The translations under genes and the position numbers were made by a program. The notes under the pieces are model-generated. The model ran no database searches. It was given only the letters and a program-made list of their open reading frames with translations, and was not told the origin of the DNA. A stretch of DNA of 64,000 bases, taken from the NCBI RefSeq assembly GCF_003334385.1, contig NZ_QOWN01000020.1. One strand, given 5' to 3'. The stretch's first letter is position 1. Each line of letters starts with the position of its first letter. The DNA is from Escherichia coli. Its GTDB lineage: Bacteria > Pseudomonadota > Gammaproteobacteria > Enterobacterales > Enterobacteriaceae. Below are positions 37,981 to 44,125 of this stretch, piece by piece.

Positions 37981-39003
37981 ATGTTTCAGCAGCAAAAAGA
38001 CTGGGAAACAAGAGAAAACGCGTTTGCTGCTTTTACCATGGGACCGCTGACTGATTTCTGGCGTCAGCGTGATGAAGCAGAGTTTACTGGTGTGGATGAC
38101 ATTCCGGTGCGCTTTGTCCGTTTTCGCGCACAGCACCATGACCGGGTGGTAGTCATCTGCCCGGGGCGTATTGAGAGCTACGTAAAATATGCGGAACTGG
38201 CCTATGACCTGTTCCATTTGGGGTTTGATGTCTTAATCATCGACCATCGCGGGCAGGGACGTTCCGGTCGCCTGTTAGCCGATCCGCATCTCGGGCATGT
38301 TAATCGCTTTAATGATTATGTTGATGATCTGGCGGCATTCTGGCAGCAGGAGGTTCAGCCCGGTCCGTGGCGTAAACGCTATATACTGGCACATTCGATG
38401 GGCGGTGCGATCTCCACATTATTTCTGCAACGCCATCCAGGTGTATGTGACGCCATTGCGCTAACTGCGCCAATGTTTGGGATCGTGATTCGTATGCCGT
38501 CATTTATGGCACGGCAGATCCTCAACTGGGCCGAAGCGCATCCACGTTTCCGTGATGGCTATGCAATAGGCACCGGGCGCTGGCGCGCGTTGCCGTTTGC
38601 TATCAACGTACTGACCCACAGCAGACAGCGATATCGACGTAACTTACGCTTCTATGCTGATGACCCAACGATTCGCGTCGGTGGGCCGACCTACCATTGG
38701 GTACGCGAAAGTATTCTGGCTGGCGAACAGGTGTTAGCCGGTGCGGGTGATGACGCCACGCCAACGCTTCTCTTGCAGGCTGAAGAGGAACGCGTGGTGG
38801 ATAACCGCATGCATGACCGTTTTTGTGAACTCCGCACCGCCGCGGGCCATCCTGTCGAAGGAGGACGGCCGTTGGTAATTAAAGGTGCTTACCATGAGAT
38901 CCTTTTTGAAAAGGACGCAATGCGCTCAGTCGCGCTCCACGCCATCGTTGATTTTTTCAACAGGCATAACTCACCCAGCGGAAACCGCTCTACAGAGGTT
39001 TAA
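37981..39003 (+). CDS. pldB: lysophospholipase L2 (alpha/beta hydrolase)
   Basis: 340-aa ORF; nucleophile elbow GHSMGG; synteny. Confidence 0.93.
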   Translation: MFQQQKDWETRENAFAAFTMGPLTDFWRQRDEAEFTGVDDIPVRFVRFRAQHHDRVVVICPGRIESYVKYAELAYDLFHLGFDVLIIDHRGQGRSGRLLADPHLGHVNRFNDYVDDLAAFWQQEVQPGPWRKRYILAHSMGGAISTLFLQRHPGVCDAIALTAPMFGIVIRMPSFMARQILNWAEAHPRFRDGYAIGTGRWRALPFAINVLTHSRQRYRRNLRFYADDPTIRVGGPTYHWVRESILAGEQVLAGAGDDATPTLLLQAEEERVVDNRMHDRFCELRTAAGHPVEGGRPLVIKGAYHEILFEKDAMRSVALHAIVDFFNRHNSPSGNRSTEV

Positions 39004-39010
39004 ATTTCTT

Positions 39011-39811
39011 ATGTACCAGGTTGTTGCGTCTGATTTAGATGGCACGTTACTTTCTCCCGACCATACGTTATCCCCTTACGCCAAAGAAACTCTGAAGCTG
39101 CTCACCGCGCGCGGCATCAACTTTGTGTTTGCGACCGGTCGTCACCACGTTGATGTGGGGCAAATTCGCGATAATCTGGAGATTAAGTCTTACATGATTA
39201 CCTCCAATGGTGCGCGCGTTCACGATCTGGATGGTAATCTGATTTTTGCTCATAACCTGGATCGCGACATTGCCAGCGATCTGTTTGGCGTAGTCAACGA
39301 CAATCCGGACATCATTACTAACGTTTATCGCGACGACGAATGGTTTATGAATCGCCATCGCCCGGAAGAGATGCGCTTTTTTAAAGAAGCGGTGTTCCAA
39401 TATGCGCTGTATGAGCCTGGATTACTGGAGCCGGAAGGCGTCAGCAAAGTGTTCTTCACCTGCGATTCCCATGAACAACTGCTGCCGCTGGAGCAGGCGA
39501 TTAACGCTCGTTGGGGCGATCGCGTCAACGTCAGTTTCTCTACCTTAACCTGTCTGGAAGTGATGGCGGGCGGCGTTTCAAAAGGCCATGCGCTGGAAGC
39601 GGTGGCGAAGAAACTGGGCTACAGCCTGAAGGATTGTATTGCGTTTGGTGACGGGATGAACGACGCCGAAATGCTGTCGATGGCGGGGAAAGGCTGCATT
39701 ATGGGCAGTGCGCACCAGCGTCTGAAAGACCTTCATCCCGAGCTGGAAGTGATTGGTACTAATGCCGACGACGCGGTGCCGCATTATCTGCGTAAACTCT
39801 ATTTATCGTAA
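39011..39811 (+). CDS. yigL: HAD-family sugar phosphatase (Cof-like)
   Basis: 266-aa ORF from ATG 39011 (MYQVVASDLDGTLL, HAD motif I DxDGT); the ORF-track N-terminal extension overlaps pldB. Confidence 0.9.
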   Translation: MYQVVASDLDGTLLSPDHTLSPYAKETLKLLTARGINFVFATGRHHVDVGQIRDNLEIKSYMITSNGARVHDLDGNLIFAHNLDRDIASDLFGVVNDNPDIITNVYRDDEWFMNRHRPEEMRFFKEAVFQYALYEPGLLEPEGVSKVFFTCDSHEQLLPLEQAINARWGDRVNVSFSTLTCLEVMAGGVSKGHALEAVAKKLGYSLKDCIAFGDGMNDAEMLSMAGKGCIMGSAHQRLKDLHPELEVIGTNADDAVPHYLRKLYLS

Positions 39812-39886
39812 TCGTTCTTTATTTGGTCAGTTGTCAACCTGATACTTCGCTACAATGGATACCCGTTAATCAAAGAGTTTTCCATT

Positions 39887-40786
39887 GTGGCGCTACTTAT
39901 CATCACCACGATTCTGTGGGCCTTCTCCTTTAGCTTTTATGGCGAGTACCTTGCGGGGCACGTCGATAGCTATTTTGCGGTGCTGGTGCGCGTTGGCCTG
40001 GCGGCACTCGTTTTTCTGCCGTTTCTGCGTACCCGTGGCAATAGCCTGAAAACGGTCGGCCTGTATATGCTGGTGGGCGCGATGCAGCTTGGCGTGATGT
40101 ATATGCTGAGTTTCCGCGCTTATCTCTACCTGACGGTTTCCGAGCTGCTGCTGTTCACCGTGCTGACGCCGCTCTACATCACGCTGATTTATGACATCAT
40201 GAGTAAGCTCCGTCTGCGCTGGGGCTATGCCTTTAGCGCCTTGCTGGCGGTGATTGGTGCCGGGATTATTCGCTATGATCAGGTCACCGACCATTTCTGG
40301 ACTGGCTTGCTGCTGGTGCAACTCTCCAATATCACTTTTGCCATTGGCATGGTGGGTTACAAACGCCTGATGGAAACTCGCCCGATGCCACAGCATAACG
40401 CCTTTGCGTGGTTCTATCTTGGCGCGTTTCTGGTGGCAGTGATTGCATGGTTCTTGCTGGGAAATGCGCAGAAAATGCCGCAAACCACGCTGCAATGGGG
40501 CATTCTGGTGTTTCTTGGCGTGGTGGCTTCCGGGATTGGCTACTTTATGTGGAACTACGGCGCGACGCAGGTGGACGCCGGAACGCTGGGCATTATGAAT
40601 AATATGCACGTTCCGGCAGGGCTGCTGGTAAACCTGGCTATCTGGCACCAACAGCCGCACTGGCCAACGTTTATTACAGGCGCGCTGGTGATCCTGGCCT
40701 CACTGTGGGTGCATCGTAAGTGGGTCGCTCCGCGCTCTTCACAAACGGCAGATGATCGCAGGCGTGATTGCGCGCTGAGCGAATAA
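39887..40786 (+). CDS. bioP: EamA/DMT-family transporter (biotin uptake)
   Basis: 299-aa polytopic ORF (yigM); 3' end overlaps convergent metR. Confidence 0.85.
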
Positions 40787-41627
40787 ACGCTTCCGTAACT
40801 GGCTGACGCTGCTCGCCATCGCGCACGGCGGCGTACAGTCGGCTCCACAAGCCTTCGCCCAGGGTTTTGGTCACCACCAGACCCTGGCGCTCAAAACTCT
40901 CTACTACCCAATGCGGTAGCGCGGCAATACCCATCCGCGCGGCAACCATCTGAATCAACAATAAGGTGTTATCGACGCTTTTCAGTGACGGGCTGACGCC
41001 TGCCGGCTGAAGAAAATGCCGCCAGACATCCAGTCGACTACGCTGCACCGGATAAATTAATAGCGTCTCGCTGGCGAGATCTTCCGGTGTAATTCGCGTT
41101 TTCGCCGCCAGTGGATGGTCAGGTGCTAACACCAGACGCACTTCATAGTCGAACATCGGCGAATAATGCAGGCCACTGCGCGGCAGAATATCGGACGTCA
41201 TTACCAGATCCAGCTCTCCCTGTTGCAAGGCGGGCTGCGGGTCAAATGTCACGCCCGATTTAAAATCCATCTCTACCTGCGGCCAGTTCTTATGGAAATT
41301 TTCTAACGCGGGTGTCAGCCACTGAATACAGCTATGGCACTCAATGGCAATGCGCAGACGCGTCTGCTGCGGTTCATTGCAGGCTTGCAGGGCCTGGCTA
41401 ATTTGCGGCAGTACCTGGTTTGCCAGTTGCAACAGGATTTCTCCCTGCGGTGTAAAGCGTAGCGGCTGGCTCTTACGCACAAATAGCCGGAAGCCAAGGC
41501 GTTGTTCCAGATCGCTAAACTGGTGAGACAGGGCGGATTGCGTCTGATGCAACGTCGCCGCAGCGGCTGCGAGCGAGCCGCAGTTCCGCAACGCTTGTAG
41601 CGTTTTCAGGTGTTTTACTTCGATCAT
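40674..41627 (-). CDS. metR: LysR-type transcriptional activator MetR
   Basis: 317-aa ORF; N-terminal [40 protein letters not shown]; divergent from metE. Confidence 0.95.
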
Positions 41628-41863
41628 GAAAGTCCTTCACTTCGGCATGAATAATTTGCGCTTGAGGAATATACAGTAACCGCCAATTATGGATGTGTAA
41701 ACATCTGGACGGCTAAAATCCTTCGTCTTTTAAATTTATGGTGCGTTGGCTGCGTTTCTCCACCCCGGTCACTTACTTCAGTAAGCTCCCGGGGATGAAT
41801 AAACTTGCCGCCTTCCCTAAATTCAAAATCCATAGGATTTACATATAATTAGAGGAAGAAAAA
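41628..41863. promoter_or_regulatory. divergent metR/metE control region
   Basis: 236-bp intergenic region between divergent metR and metE; expected to hold both promoters and MetR/MetJ sites, but individual sites were not confidently resolved by eye. Confidence 0.5.
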
Positions 41864-44125
41864 ATGACAATATTGAATCACACCCTCGGTTTCCCTCGCG
41901 TTGGCCTGCGTCGCGAGCTGAAAAAAGCGCAAGAAAGTTATTGGGCGGGGAACTCCACGCGTGAAGAACTGCTGGCGGTAGGGCGTGAATTGCGTGCTCG
42001 TCACTGGGATCAACAAAAGCAAGCGGGTATCGACCTGCTGCCGGTGGGCGATTTTGCCTGGTACGATCATGTACTGACCACCAGTCTGCTGCTGGGTAAC
42101 GTTCCGGCGCGTCATCAGAACAAAGATGGTTCGGTAGATATCGACACCCTGTTCCGTATTGGTCGTGGACGTGCGCCGACTGGCGAACCTGCGGCGGCAG
42201 CGGAAATGACCAAATGGTTTAACACCAACTATCACTACATGGTGCCGGAGTTCGTTAAAGGCCAACAGTTCAAACTGACCTGGACGCAGCTGCTGGACGA
42301 AGTGGACGAGGCGCTGGCGCTGGGCCACAAGGTGAAACCTGTGCTGCTGGGGCCGGTTACCTGGCTGTGGCTGGGGAAAGTGAAAGGTGAACAATTTGAC
42401 CGCCTGAGCCTGCTGAACGACATTCTGCCGGTTTATCAGCAAGTGCTGGCAGAACTGGCGAAACGCGGCATCGAGTGGGTACAGATTGATGAACCCGCGC
42501 TGGTACTGGAACTACCACAGGCGTGGCTGGACGCATACAAACCCGCTTACGACGCGCTCCAGGGACAGGTGAAACTGCTGCTGACCACCTATTTTGAAGG
42601 CGTAACGCCAAATCTCGACACGATTACTGCGCTGCCTGTTCAGGGTCTGCATGTTGACCTCGTACATGGTAAAGATGACGTTGCTGAACTGCACAAGCGC
42701 CTGCCTTCTGACTGGTTGCTGTCTGCGGGTCTGATCAATGGTCGTAACGTCTGGCGCGCCGATCTTACCGAGAAATATGCGCAAATTAAGGACATTGTCG
42801 GCAAACGTGATTTGTGGGTGGCATCTTCCTGCTCGTTGCTGCACAGCCCCATCGACCTGAGCGTGGAAACGCGTCTTGATGCAGAAGTGAAAAGCTGGTT
42901 TGCCTTCGCCCTACAAAAATGCCATGAACTGGCACTGCTGCGCGATGCGCTGAACAGTGGTGACACGGCAGCTCTGGCAGAGTGGAGCGCCCCGATTCAG
43001 GCACGTCGTCACTCTACCCGCGTACATAATCCGGCGGTAGAAAAGCGTCTGGCGGCGATCACCGCCCAGGACAGCCAGCGTGCGAATGTCTATGAAGTGC
43101 GTGCTGAAGCCCAGCGTGCGCGTTTTAAACTGCCAGCGTGGCCGACCACCACGATTGGTTCCTTCCCGCAAACCACGGAAATTCGTACCCTGCGTCTGGA
43201 TTTCAAAAAGGGCAATCTCGACGCCAACAACTACCGCACGGGCATTGCGGAACATATCAAGCAGGCCATTGTTGAGCAGGAACGTTTGGGACTGGATGTG
43301 CTGGTACATGGCGAGGCCGAGCGTAATGACATGGTGGAATACTTTGGCGAGCACCTCGACGGATTTGTCTTTACGCAAAACGGTTGGGTACAGAGCTACG
43401 GTTCCCGCTGCGTGAAGCCACCGATTGTCATTGGTGACATTAGCCGCCCGGCACCGATTACCGTGGAGTGGGCGAAGTATGCGCAATCGCTGACCGACAA
43501 ACCGGTGAAAGGGATGCTGACGGGGCCGGTGACCATACTCTGCTGGTCGTTCCCGCGTGAAGATGTCAGCCGTGAAACCATCGCCAAACAGATTGCGCTG
43601 GCGCTGCGTGATGAAGTGGCCGATCTGGAAGCCGCTGGAATTGGCATCATCCAGATTGACGAACCGGCGCTGCGCGAAGGTTTACCGCTGCGTCGTAGCG
43701 ACTGGGATGCGTATCTCCAGTGGGGCGTAGAGGCCTTCCGTATCAACGCCGCCGTGGCGAAAGATGACACACAAATCCACACTCACATGTGTTATTGCGA
43801 GTTCAACGACATCATGGATTCGATTGCGGCGCTGGACGCAGACGTCATCACCATCGAAACCTCGCGTTCCGACATGGAGTTGCTGGAGTCGTTTGAAGAG
43901 TTTGATTATCCAAATGAAATCGGTCCTGGCGTCTATGACATTCACTCGCCAAACGTACCGAGCGTGGAATGGATTGAAGCCTTGCTGAAGAAAGCGGCAA
44001 AACGCATTCCGGCAGAGCGCCTGTGGGTCAACCCGGACTGTGGCCTGAAAACGCGCGGCTGGCCAGAAACCCGCGCGGCACTGGCGAACATGGTGCAGGC
44101 GGCGCAGAATTTGCGTCGGGGGTAA
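41864..44125 (+). CDS. metE: cobalamin-independent methionine synthase
   Basis: 753-aa [30 protein letters not shown]; MetE duplicated-barrel family. Confidence 0.96.

Follow-up and report, generated by a model that had tools for sequence, protein, structure and literature searches.

The bioP (yigM) and metR genes and their 3' ends

The genes bioP (yigM) and metR are arranged tail to tail in the stretch of Escherichia coli DNA analysed here (64,000 nt, referred to as the window). According to the list of open reading frames, the two ORFs (39887..40786 on the + strand and 40674..41627 on the - strand) have 113 bp in common, which comprise the last 37 codons of both, stop included (Table 1). 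RefSeq/PGAP annotates both CDSs, overlapping by exactly these 113 bp, in E. coli SCU-104, whose segment is 100% identical, and so does RefSeq in K-12 MG1655 (bioP 4011076..4011975, metR 4011863..4012816). All 5426 complete E. coli genomes contain the yigM/metR locus. The gene names, the coordinates and the 37-codon extent given in an earlier note on this DNA agree with these annotations, and the names are also borne out by the NCBIfam profiles: MetR matches NF011950 over residues 1-317 (741 bits, cut-off 382) and YigM matches TIGR00950 over residues 11-273 (306 bits, cut-off 230), which makes both partners independently recognised genes.

Table 1. Features of the yigM/metR locus, in window coordinates
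Feature	Position	Strand	Description
bioP (yigM) CDS	39887..40786	+	299 aa, GTG start; EamA/DMT-type biotin transporter; RefSeq
metR CDS	40674..41627	-	317 aa, ATG start; LysR-type regulator; RefSeq
Rho-dependent termination peak	40515	+	mapped from MG1655 4011704; inside yigM, ~270 nt before the stop
Convergent coding overlap	40674..40786	both	113 bp; YigM residues 263-299 + stop; MetR residues 281-317 + stop
metR stop TAA, with in-frame back-up stop	40674-40676; back-up stop 40671-40673	-	antisense of YigM Phe262-Ile263-Thr264
yigM-like segment	40674..40720		YigM 263-278 (second half of last membrane helix); MetR tail 303-317 antisense
Doubly constrained core	40721..40738		TGGGTCGCTCCGCGCTCT; YigM W279-V-A-P-R-S284; MetR S298-A-E-R-P302
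metR-like segment	40739..40786		MetR 281-297 (regulatory domain end, last helix); YigM tail 285-299 antisense
yigM stop TAA	40784..40786	+	antisense of MetR Phe281 (TTT) positions 2-3 + Ile282 (ATT) position 1

The function of YigM in biotin transport has been published (Finkenwirth et al. 2013; Côté et al. 2016, PMC5120140). In an AF2 model of the protein with a mean pLDDT of 91, the last helix consists of residues 259-280, and the pLDDT drops to 61 and then to 54 over residues 281-299. For MetR, residues 1-92 are matched by PDB entry 5fo5, and residues 87-296 align with the solved regulatory domain of a MetR-like protein from Neisseria (PDB 4ab5). The AF2 model of MetR, which was built from a shallow alignment of 24 sequences, reached a mean pLDDT of only 43 and was set aside. 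The MetR proteins of Enterobacterales are conserved up to the motif ...HLPFV[RK]xAxRP, which is followed by a variable Pro/Ala/Ser-rich tail of 5-16 residues.

Two other reading frames close to these genes were also recorded. One is an ORF of 255 aa that runs antisense to nearly all of yigM (39893-40660, - strand) in the codon-aligned frame (phase 0). Phase 0 has the lowest antisense stop frequency in the window (0.0195 per codon), and the ORF is most likely a by-product of the yigM codon content and no gene. The other is a longer version of the yigL ORF (38885-39811, + strand), which starts with a GTG 126 nt upstream, within pldB, and codes for 308 aa. The RefSeq version of YigL starts just past the pldB stop and contains 266 aa, and the longer frame is probably not used.

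The overlap itself has been noticed before. Côté et al. (mBio 2016, PMC5120140) mention that yigM "overlaps substantially" with metR, and they report that a metR deletion mutant lost YigM function, was synthetic lethal with bioA and was sensitive to the BioA inhibitor MAC13772. The overlap is handled in the passages concerned as a confounder of deletion genetics, without an evolutionary analysis and without reference to fixed stops or non-overlapping orthologs. The yigM-metR overlap is a real and ordinary one, which has been both annotated and published. By design, Keio deletions start at codon 2 and reach as far as the seventh-last codon. A Keio-style ΔmetR allele would thus be expected to take out YigM from about residue 270 on. 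In the opposite direction, a ΔbioH ΔyigM::Km strain grows on mineral salts medium with biotin (Finkenwirth et al. 2013), which hints that the loss of C-terminal MetR codons is tolerated; metR, the overlap and methionine are not mentioned in that paper.

Conservation of the overlap among relatives

One scan of species-representative genomes yielded 80 species of Enterobacteriaceae with YigM proteins 81-99% identical to the query, and overlap lengths were obtained for these species by ungapped comparison. Not a single indel was found across the 80 species, and the overlap measured 113 bp in 70 of them, 116 bp in seven, 98 bp in two and 68 bp in one. YigM consists of 299 aa in 79 of the 80 species and also in Yersinia, Pectobacterium and Dickeya, and MetR of 317 aa in 70 species, 318 aa in seven and 312 aa in two (loci L021 and L041). 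Outside the family, Yersinia kristensenii shows the same geometry as E. coli (overlap of 113 bp, YigM of 299 aa, MetR of 317 aa), and the overlaps are slightly shorter in Dickeya (98 bp, MetR of 312 aa) and Pectobacterium (95 bp, MetR of 311 aa). The gene lengths therefore agree with those of the orthologs, and there is no lineage-specific 3' extension from a frameshift or a lost stop. Shorter YigM proteins do occur: some Salmonella clusters stop at 284 or 285 aa, one gut Enterobacteriaceae genome (L033) codes for 284 aa, and YigM homologs of about 50% identity, which are not located beside metR, are 282-294 aa long.

The earlier note had considered a misassigned stop or start of one of the genes, and an overlap of this kind might indeed be an annotation artefact, produced by such an error, a frameshift or a sequencing error, with the real genes lying apart. 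The shorter YigM orthologs of Serratia, Mixta and some Salmonella would fit this explanation, but several findings speak against it, and we reject it as highly improbable on the basis of the conservation data. The choice of the start codons has no bearing on an overlap between two 3' ends, the stops of yigM and metR are both the first ones in frame, and the geometry is identical without any indel in 70 of the 80 species as well as in Yersinia. That the reference contains a frameshift or a sequencing error is very unlikely, given the 5426 complete E. coli genomes with the locus. Furthermore, the last helix of YigM (to residue 280) falls within the overlap, the conserved cores of the two proteins alone have at least 11 nt in common (40722-40732), and the deletion of metR disrupts YigM function, as described by Côté et al. 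(2016).

Two unusual variants were encountered among the sequences compared. In E. coli Z135-6 (L002, NZ_CP159632.1 2012589-2014408, corresponding to about 40110-41210 of the window), other DNA has taken the place of the last two-thirds of bioP and of the 3' part of metR, and with them of the entire overlap. This DNA carries a hypothetical ORF of 636 bp, and bioP and metR are annotated as partial pseudogenes. The second is a frameshifted YigM variant of 358 aa (P0081), whose sequence is nearest to a Salmonella entry (P0076). After ...WVHRKW, it continues for about 80 more codons in another frame antisense to metR, an example of the openness of the metR antisense frames.

Constraint along the 113 bp

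Across the overlap, the first codon positions of the two genes face each other, and the second positions of either gene face the third positions of the other. This arrangement is termed phase 1 in bioRxiv 10.1101/2025.11.07.687268. Because of this pairing, every change at a wobble position of yigM or metR is a second-position change in the partner. We counted Fitch substitutions per site on 81 sequences. Outside the overlap, both genes behave alike, with 13-14 changes at third and less than one at second codon positions. Within the overlap, the three segments listed in Table 1 differ. In 40674-40720, the yigM pattern prevails, with 10-13 changes per site at yigM third positions versus 0-4 at second positions. 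In 40739-40786, the changes concentrate at the third positions of metR, and its second positions show almost none. At about 40720-40740, the periodicity changes over from that of yigM to that of metR. The core between the two segments (40721-40738) is frozen and hardly varies at any codon position, and its first 12 nt (40721-40732) show 0-1 substitutions per site.

The same division is evident from dN/dS values obtained as Nei-Gojobori estimates. The values are low for both conserved parts (0.17 for YigM 264-279 and 0.05 for MetR 281-297), and the segments opposite to them reach apparent values of 6.5 (YigM tail 285-299) and 1.9 (MetR tail 303-317). In the dual zone, the values are 0.43 for YigM 280-284 and 0.19 for MetR 298-302, and dS decreases to about 0.15, compared to about 1.0 outside the overlap. 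Wobble changes were also compared with expectations from residue-matched resampling. In the dual zone, we observed one change versus 64 expected for metR (MetR 298-302, P<5e-5) and five versus 49 for yigM (YigM 280-284, P=5e-5). Opposite the YigM tail, metR wobble changes were likewise reduced (MetR 281-297, 122 observed versus 208 expected, P=1e-4), whereas those of yigM opposite the MetR tail were not significantly reduced (YigM 264-279, 119 versus 143, P=0.13). Selection in both frames is thus evident at 40721-40738, and in the other ~95 nt one frame at a time is clearly constrained. The arginine at MetR position 301, in the frozen core, is encoded by the rare codon CGA in 80 of the 81 sequences.

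Mutual antisense constraint, which the earlier note had proposed as a possible consequence of the overlap, is accordingly supported for the core of 12-18 nt, which is frozen in both frames, and receives additional support from the lowered synonymous change of metR under the YigM tail. The question of whether the C-terminal tail of the transporter is conserved as protein, on which that note had made its case depend, received a divided answer. The last ~15 residues of YigM are no conserved part of the protein as judged by sequence comparison, which follows from the shorter YigM proteins of Serratia (287 aa), Mixta (282 aa), some Salmonella (284 or 285 aa), genome L033 and the homologs of about 50% identity, and is in line with their high dN/dS. 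The overlap persists despite this unconserved tail, because about half of it encodes part of the last transmembrane helix of YigM. The overlap with this helix and the W-V-A-P motif is real.

We therefore consider it very likely that yigM and metR form a genuine and ancient tail-to-tail overlap of two functional genes, which is mostly passive, and that both ORFs are presumably translated up to the annotated stops. On the chromosome, the two proteins abut with their conserved ends, the last transmembrane helix of YigM extending through W279-V-A-P282 and the regulatory domain of MetR through A299-E-R-P302, and these ends have about 12-18 nt in common. Because there is no spacer, each ribosome would read on into the antisense of the conserved coding sequence of the partner until it meets a stop. 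The resulting tails of about 15 residues would change with every synonymous change of the partner and thus evolve fast as protein. This passive reading is backed by the geometry, the conservation, the codon-phase pattern, the fixed stops and the orthologous loci without overlap, the latter two of which are described below. Two findings are not accounted for by it: synonymous change in metR opposite the YigM tail falls short of expectation by 42%, and TTT-ATT at the yigM stop is frozen.

Stop codons set by the partner gene

Each of the two genes owes its stop to conserved residues of the other. MetR Phe281-Ile282 makes the yigM stop T[A/G]A: a Phe codon followed by a codon beginning with A forces a stop in yigM, because TTT is read as TAA and TTC as TGA. 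The sequence at F281-I282 is TTT-ATT in 80 of the 81 sequences, which keeps the end of yigM as GAA-TAA. Conversely, YigM Phe262-Ile263-Thr/Ile264 makes both the metR stop and its back-up. The metR stop is the antisense of Ile263 (ATT or ATC) and an A-initial codon 264, and the second stop, which derives from Phe262-Ile263, is in use in the MetR variants of 318 aa with an overlap of 116 bp.

Stops at earlier positions depend on particular synonymous codons. The YigM of 284 aa in L033 results from a MetR V296 codon GTT or GTC followed by AAG or AGG, and the MetR proteins of 312 aa in L021 and L041 result from a T at the third position of YigM codon 268, which is GTT in one and ATT in the other, followed by an Ile codon. 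Among all sequences, GTT or GTC at metR V296 occurs once in 20 cases before an A-initial codon, where it would truncate YigM, and 10 times in 61 otherwise, a difference that comes from too few independent lineages to show avoidance.

The length of the tails does not call for a special explanation. In the phase-1 antisense frame of the 42 long ORFs of the window, we found 0.043 stops per codon, or one every ~23 codons, and a mean open run of 21 codons. A run of 15 codons stays free of stops in this frame with a probability of 0.52, and a run of 37 codons with a probability of 0.20. From this stop rate, tails of 15 codons are the chance expectation once the genes abut.

An alternative to passive run-on tails is that the two C-terminal peptides have a function, with true dual-coding selection acting over the full 113 bp. 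Several observations are compatible with this: metR wobble change under the YigM tail amounts to only 58% of expectation, the invariant TTT-ATT preserves YigM E299 and the TAA stop, the lengths of 299 and 317 aa are kept in most species, and certain codons preserve residues of the partner. The latter are the rare CGG at MetR R286 (69 of 81 sequences), which preserves YigM S295, and in yigM the codons GTG at V268 (78 of 81), which keeps MetR S313 and would create a stop if changed to GTT or GTC, and CAT at H276 (80 of 81), which keeps MetR D305. Against this stand the apparent tail dN/dS above one, the fact that most tail residues vary at the synonymous rate of the partner, the absence of a significant reduction in yigM wobble change under the MetR tail, the tails lost or shortened in natural lineages, the variable Pro/Ala/Ser-rich MetR tails of Enterobacterales and the low pLDDT of the YigM tail. 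The metR deficit has to be read with care as well. Its ratio for codons 281-297 (0.585) lies under those of all 425 contiguous 17-codon windows outside the overlap, but metR codons 25-47 in the helix-turn-helix region, where there is no overlap, show a comparable dip with ratios as low as 0.59, and the deficit is for this reason only suggestive of a constraint by the YigM tail. Selection on both tails over their whole length is accordingly unlikely, although the tails are not fully neutral, since a few of their positions show signs of constraint.

Natural loci without overlap

Two relatives carry yigM and metR in convergent orientation without sharing any coding sequence. In Serratia liquefaciens, where MetR has 316 aa and YigM has 287 aa and ends with ...WVAPKIVSK*, the genes converge over a spacer of 32 bp, which contains a terminator-like 10-bp GC-rich hairpin followed by a T-run. 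In Mixta calida, MetR (307 aa) and YigM (282 aa, ending with ...WVLR*) are 476 bp apart. Rare codons that are fixed in the overlapping species are exchanged for common ones in both genera: the Arg codon equivalent to MetR R301 is CGC in Serratia and CGT in Mixta, compared to CGA in the species with the overlap. I282 of Serratia MetR is encoded by ATC. A duplication relic was sought in Serratia by comparing the end of metR with the complementary strand of the yigM 3' end, but the score did not exceed those of shuffled sequences. By parsimony, the common ancestor of Enterobacteriaceae, Pectobacteriaceae and Yersiniaceae would have had the overlap, and Serratia and Mixta would have resolved it later; this argument uses five loci from outside the Enterobacteriaceae together with family assignments and a family tree that we take to be correct.

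The Serratia hairpin (GGGCAGC...GCTGCCC, L090 3458-3481) lies between an A-rich and a T-rich run and sits exactly at the place of the enterobacterial gene overlap. From its sequence, it looks like a bidirectional terminator for both genes.

Transcription across the overlap

Because each stop codon lies inside the other gene, the mRNAs of yigM and metR are complementary over at least 113 nt, and the transcriptional interference suggested in the earlier note may result. The complementarity raises the possibility that the overlap is kept for regulation, in that convergent transcription or the RNA duplex of at least 113 nt couples the expression of MetR and the biotin transporter by polymerase collision, RNase III cleavage or an excludon-like mechanism. 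The necessary complementarity of the mRNAs is one argument in its favour. Another is that a terminator scan found no intrinsic terminator-like site in 39700-41900, and collision-driven bidirectional termination has been documented at convergent genes of E. coli (Ju et al. 2019; bioRxiv 10.1101/2022.10.23.513370). In addition, supplementary file 2 of Adams et al. (2021) has an entry for Rho-dependent termination on the yigM strand, in a region peaking at MG1655 position 4011704 (Rho score 5.07, P=1.3e-12, 800-nt windows). The reads upstream and downstream amounted to 98 and 21 without and 300 and 326 with bicyclomycin, which suggests that much of the + strand transcription stops before or around the overlap, so that read-through antisense to metR would be actively limited.

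Other observations weaken the case for regulation. RNA folding of the overlap predicted no unusual stability compared to shuffled sequences for either strand (z = +0.60 and -0.83), there was no Rfam match inside the overlap, and neither yigM nor metR has an entry in the table of curated Term-seq 3' ends (Adams et al. 2021). With neither a hairpin nor a terminator-like site nor curated 3' ends, the locus does not qualify as an overlapping bidirectional terminator of the SEnd-seq class. Serratia and Mixta manage without the overlap, and the two protein frames fully account for the substitution pattern. We consequently rate a regulatory origin of its maintenance as unlikely.

In the metR-metE intergenic region (41668-41842, - strand), two sub-threshold Rfam matches were recorded, Ysr49 with 27.7 bits and V_AS5 with 26.7 bits (gathering scores 95 and 96, respectively). 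They are probably due to chance or to the conserved metR leader and met regulatory region.

Taken more broadly, a function that maintains the overlap, either as an element of the YigM tail or as an antisense coupling of biotin uptake to the methionine/SAM regulon, has a low probability in our view. Judging from its sequence, the C-terminal tail of YigM could be a selected cytoplasmic element; signs of this are the invariant terminal Glu with the TAA stop and the conserved residues R291, R293, S/C295 and A296. The obligatory antisense pairing of the 3' ends could in turn link biotin uptake to the methionine/SAM regulon. Biotin synthesis consumes SAM.

Relation to known overlaps and significance

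Long convergent overlaps are a known class, and the yigM-metR pair is a well-conserved member of it. The convergent orientation is the only one with real overlaps of more than 60 bp, and 54 candidates for real overlaps were reported from 338 genomes, mostly conserved in close species only (Pallejà, Harrington and Bork 2008, PMC2478687). The yigM-metR pair, which is not named in the text of that paper, resembles the long convergent overlaps described there and by Rogozin et al. (2002) in joining two well-characterised genes over more than 60 bp and in its origin by 3' extension into the partner. Unlike most of those candidates, which are confined to very close species, it spans the Enterobacteriaceae, Pectobacteriaceae and Yersinia. 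Its phase 1 is also the one reported as commonest for convergent overlaps of more than 4 nt (bioRxiv 10.1101/2025.11.07.687268). The holD-rimI pair is likewise a real overlap, conserved in Escherichia, Salmonella and Yersinia, and the nucleotides of its common stretch are highly conserved (PMC2478687). It differs in being co-directional and 32-56 bp long, whereas yigM-metR is convergent, 113 bp long and doubly constrained in a short core only. Bidirectional terminators of the ynaJ-uspE type (Ju et al. 2019; Wang et al., bioRxiv 10.1101/2022.10.23.513370) likewise have convergent transcripts overlapping at their 3' ends and lack a canonical intrinsic terminator, but they contain an RNA hairpin in the termination region, whereas the yigM-metR overlap is coding in both frames and has no unusually stable structure. 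Neither metR nor yigM is named in the texts of these two papers.

The locus is a tidy textbook case of a long convergent overlap that has lasted for a long time with only ~12-18 nt being truly dual-coding. The remainder consists of run-on tails with stops set by conserved residues of the partner. The locus opens no new question. Its practical consequence concerns genetics: a deletion or insertion in the 3' third of metR or yigM damages the partner, as was seen with the metR deletion mutant, in which biotin uptake is lost. Since lesions at the 3' end hit both genes, the phenotypes of metR or yigM/bioP knock-outs need to be checked for this effect.
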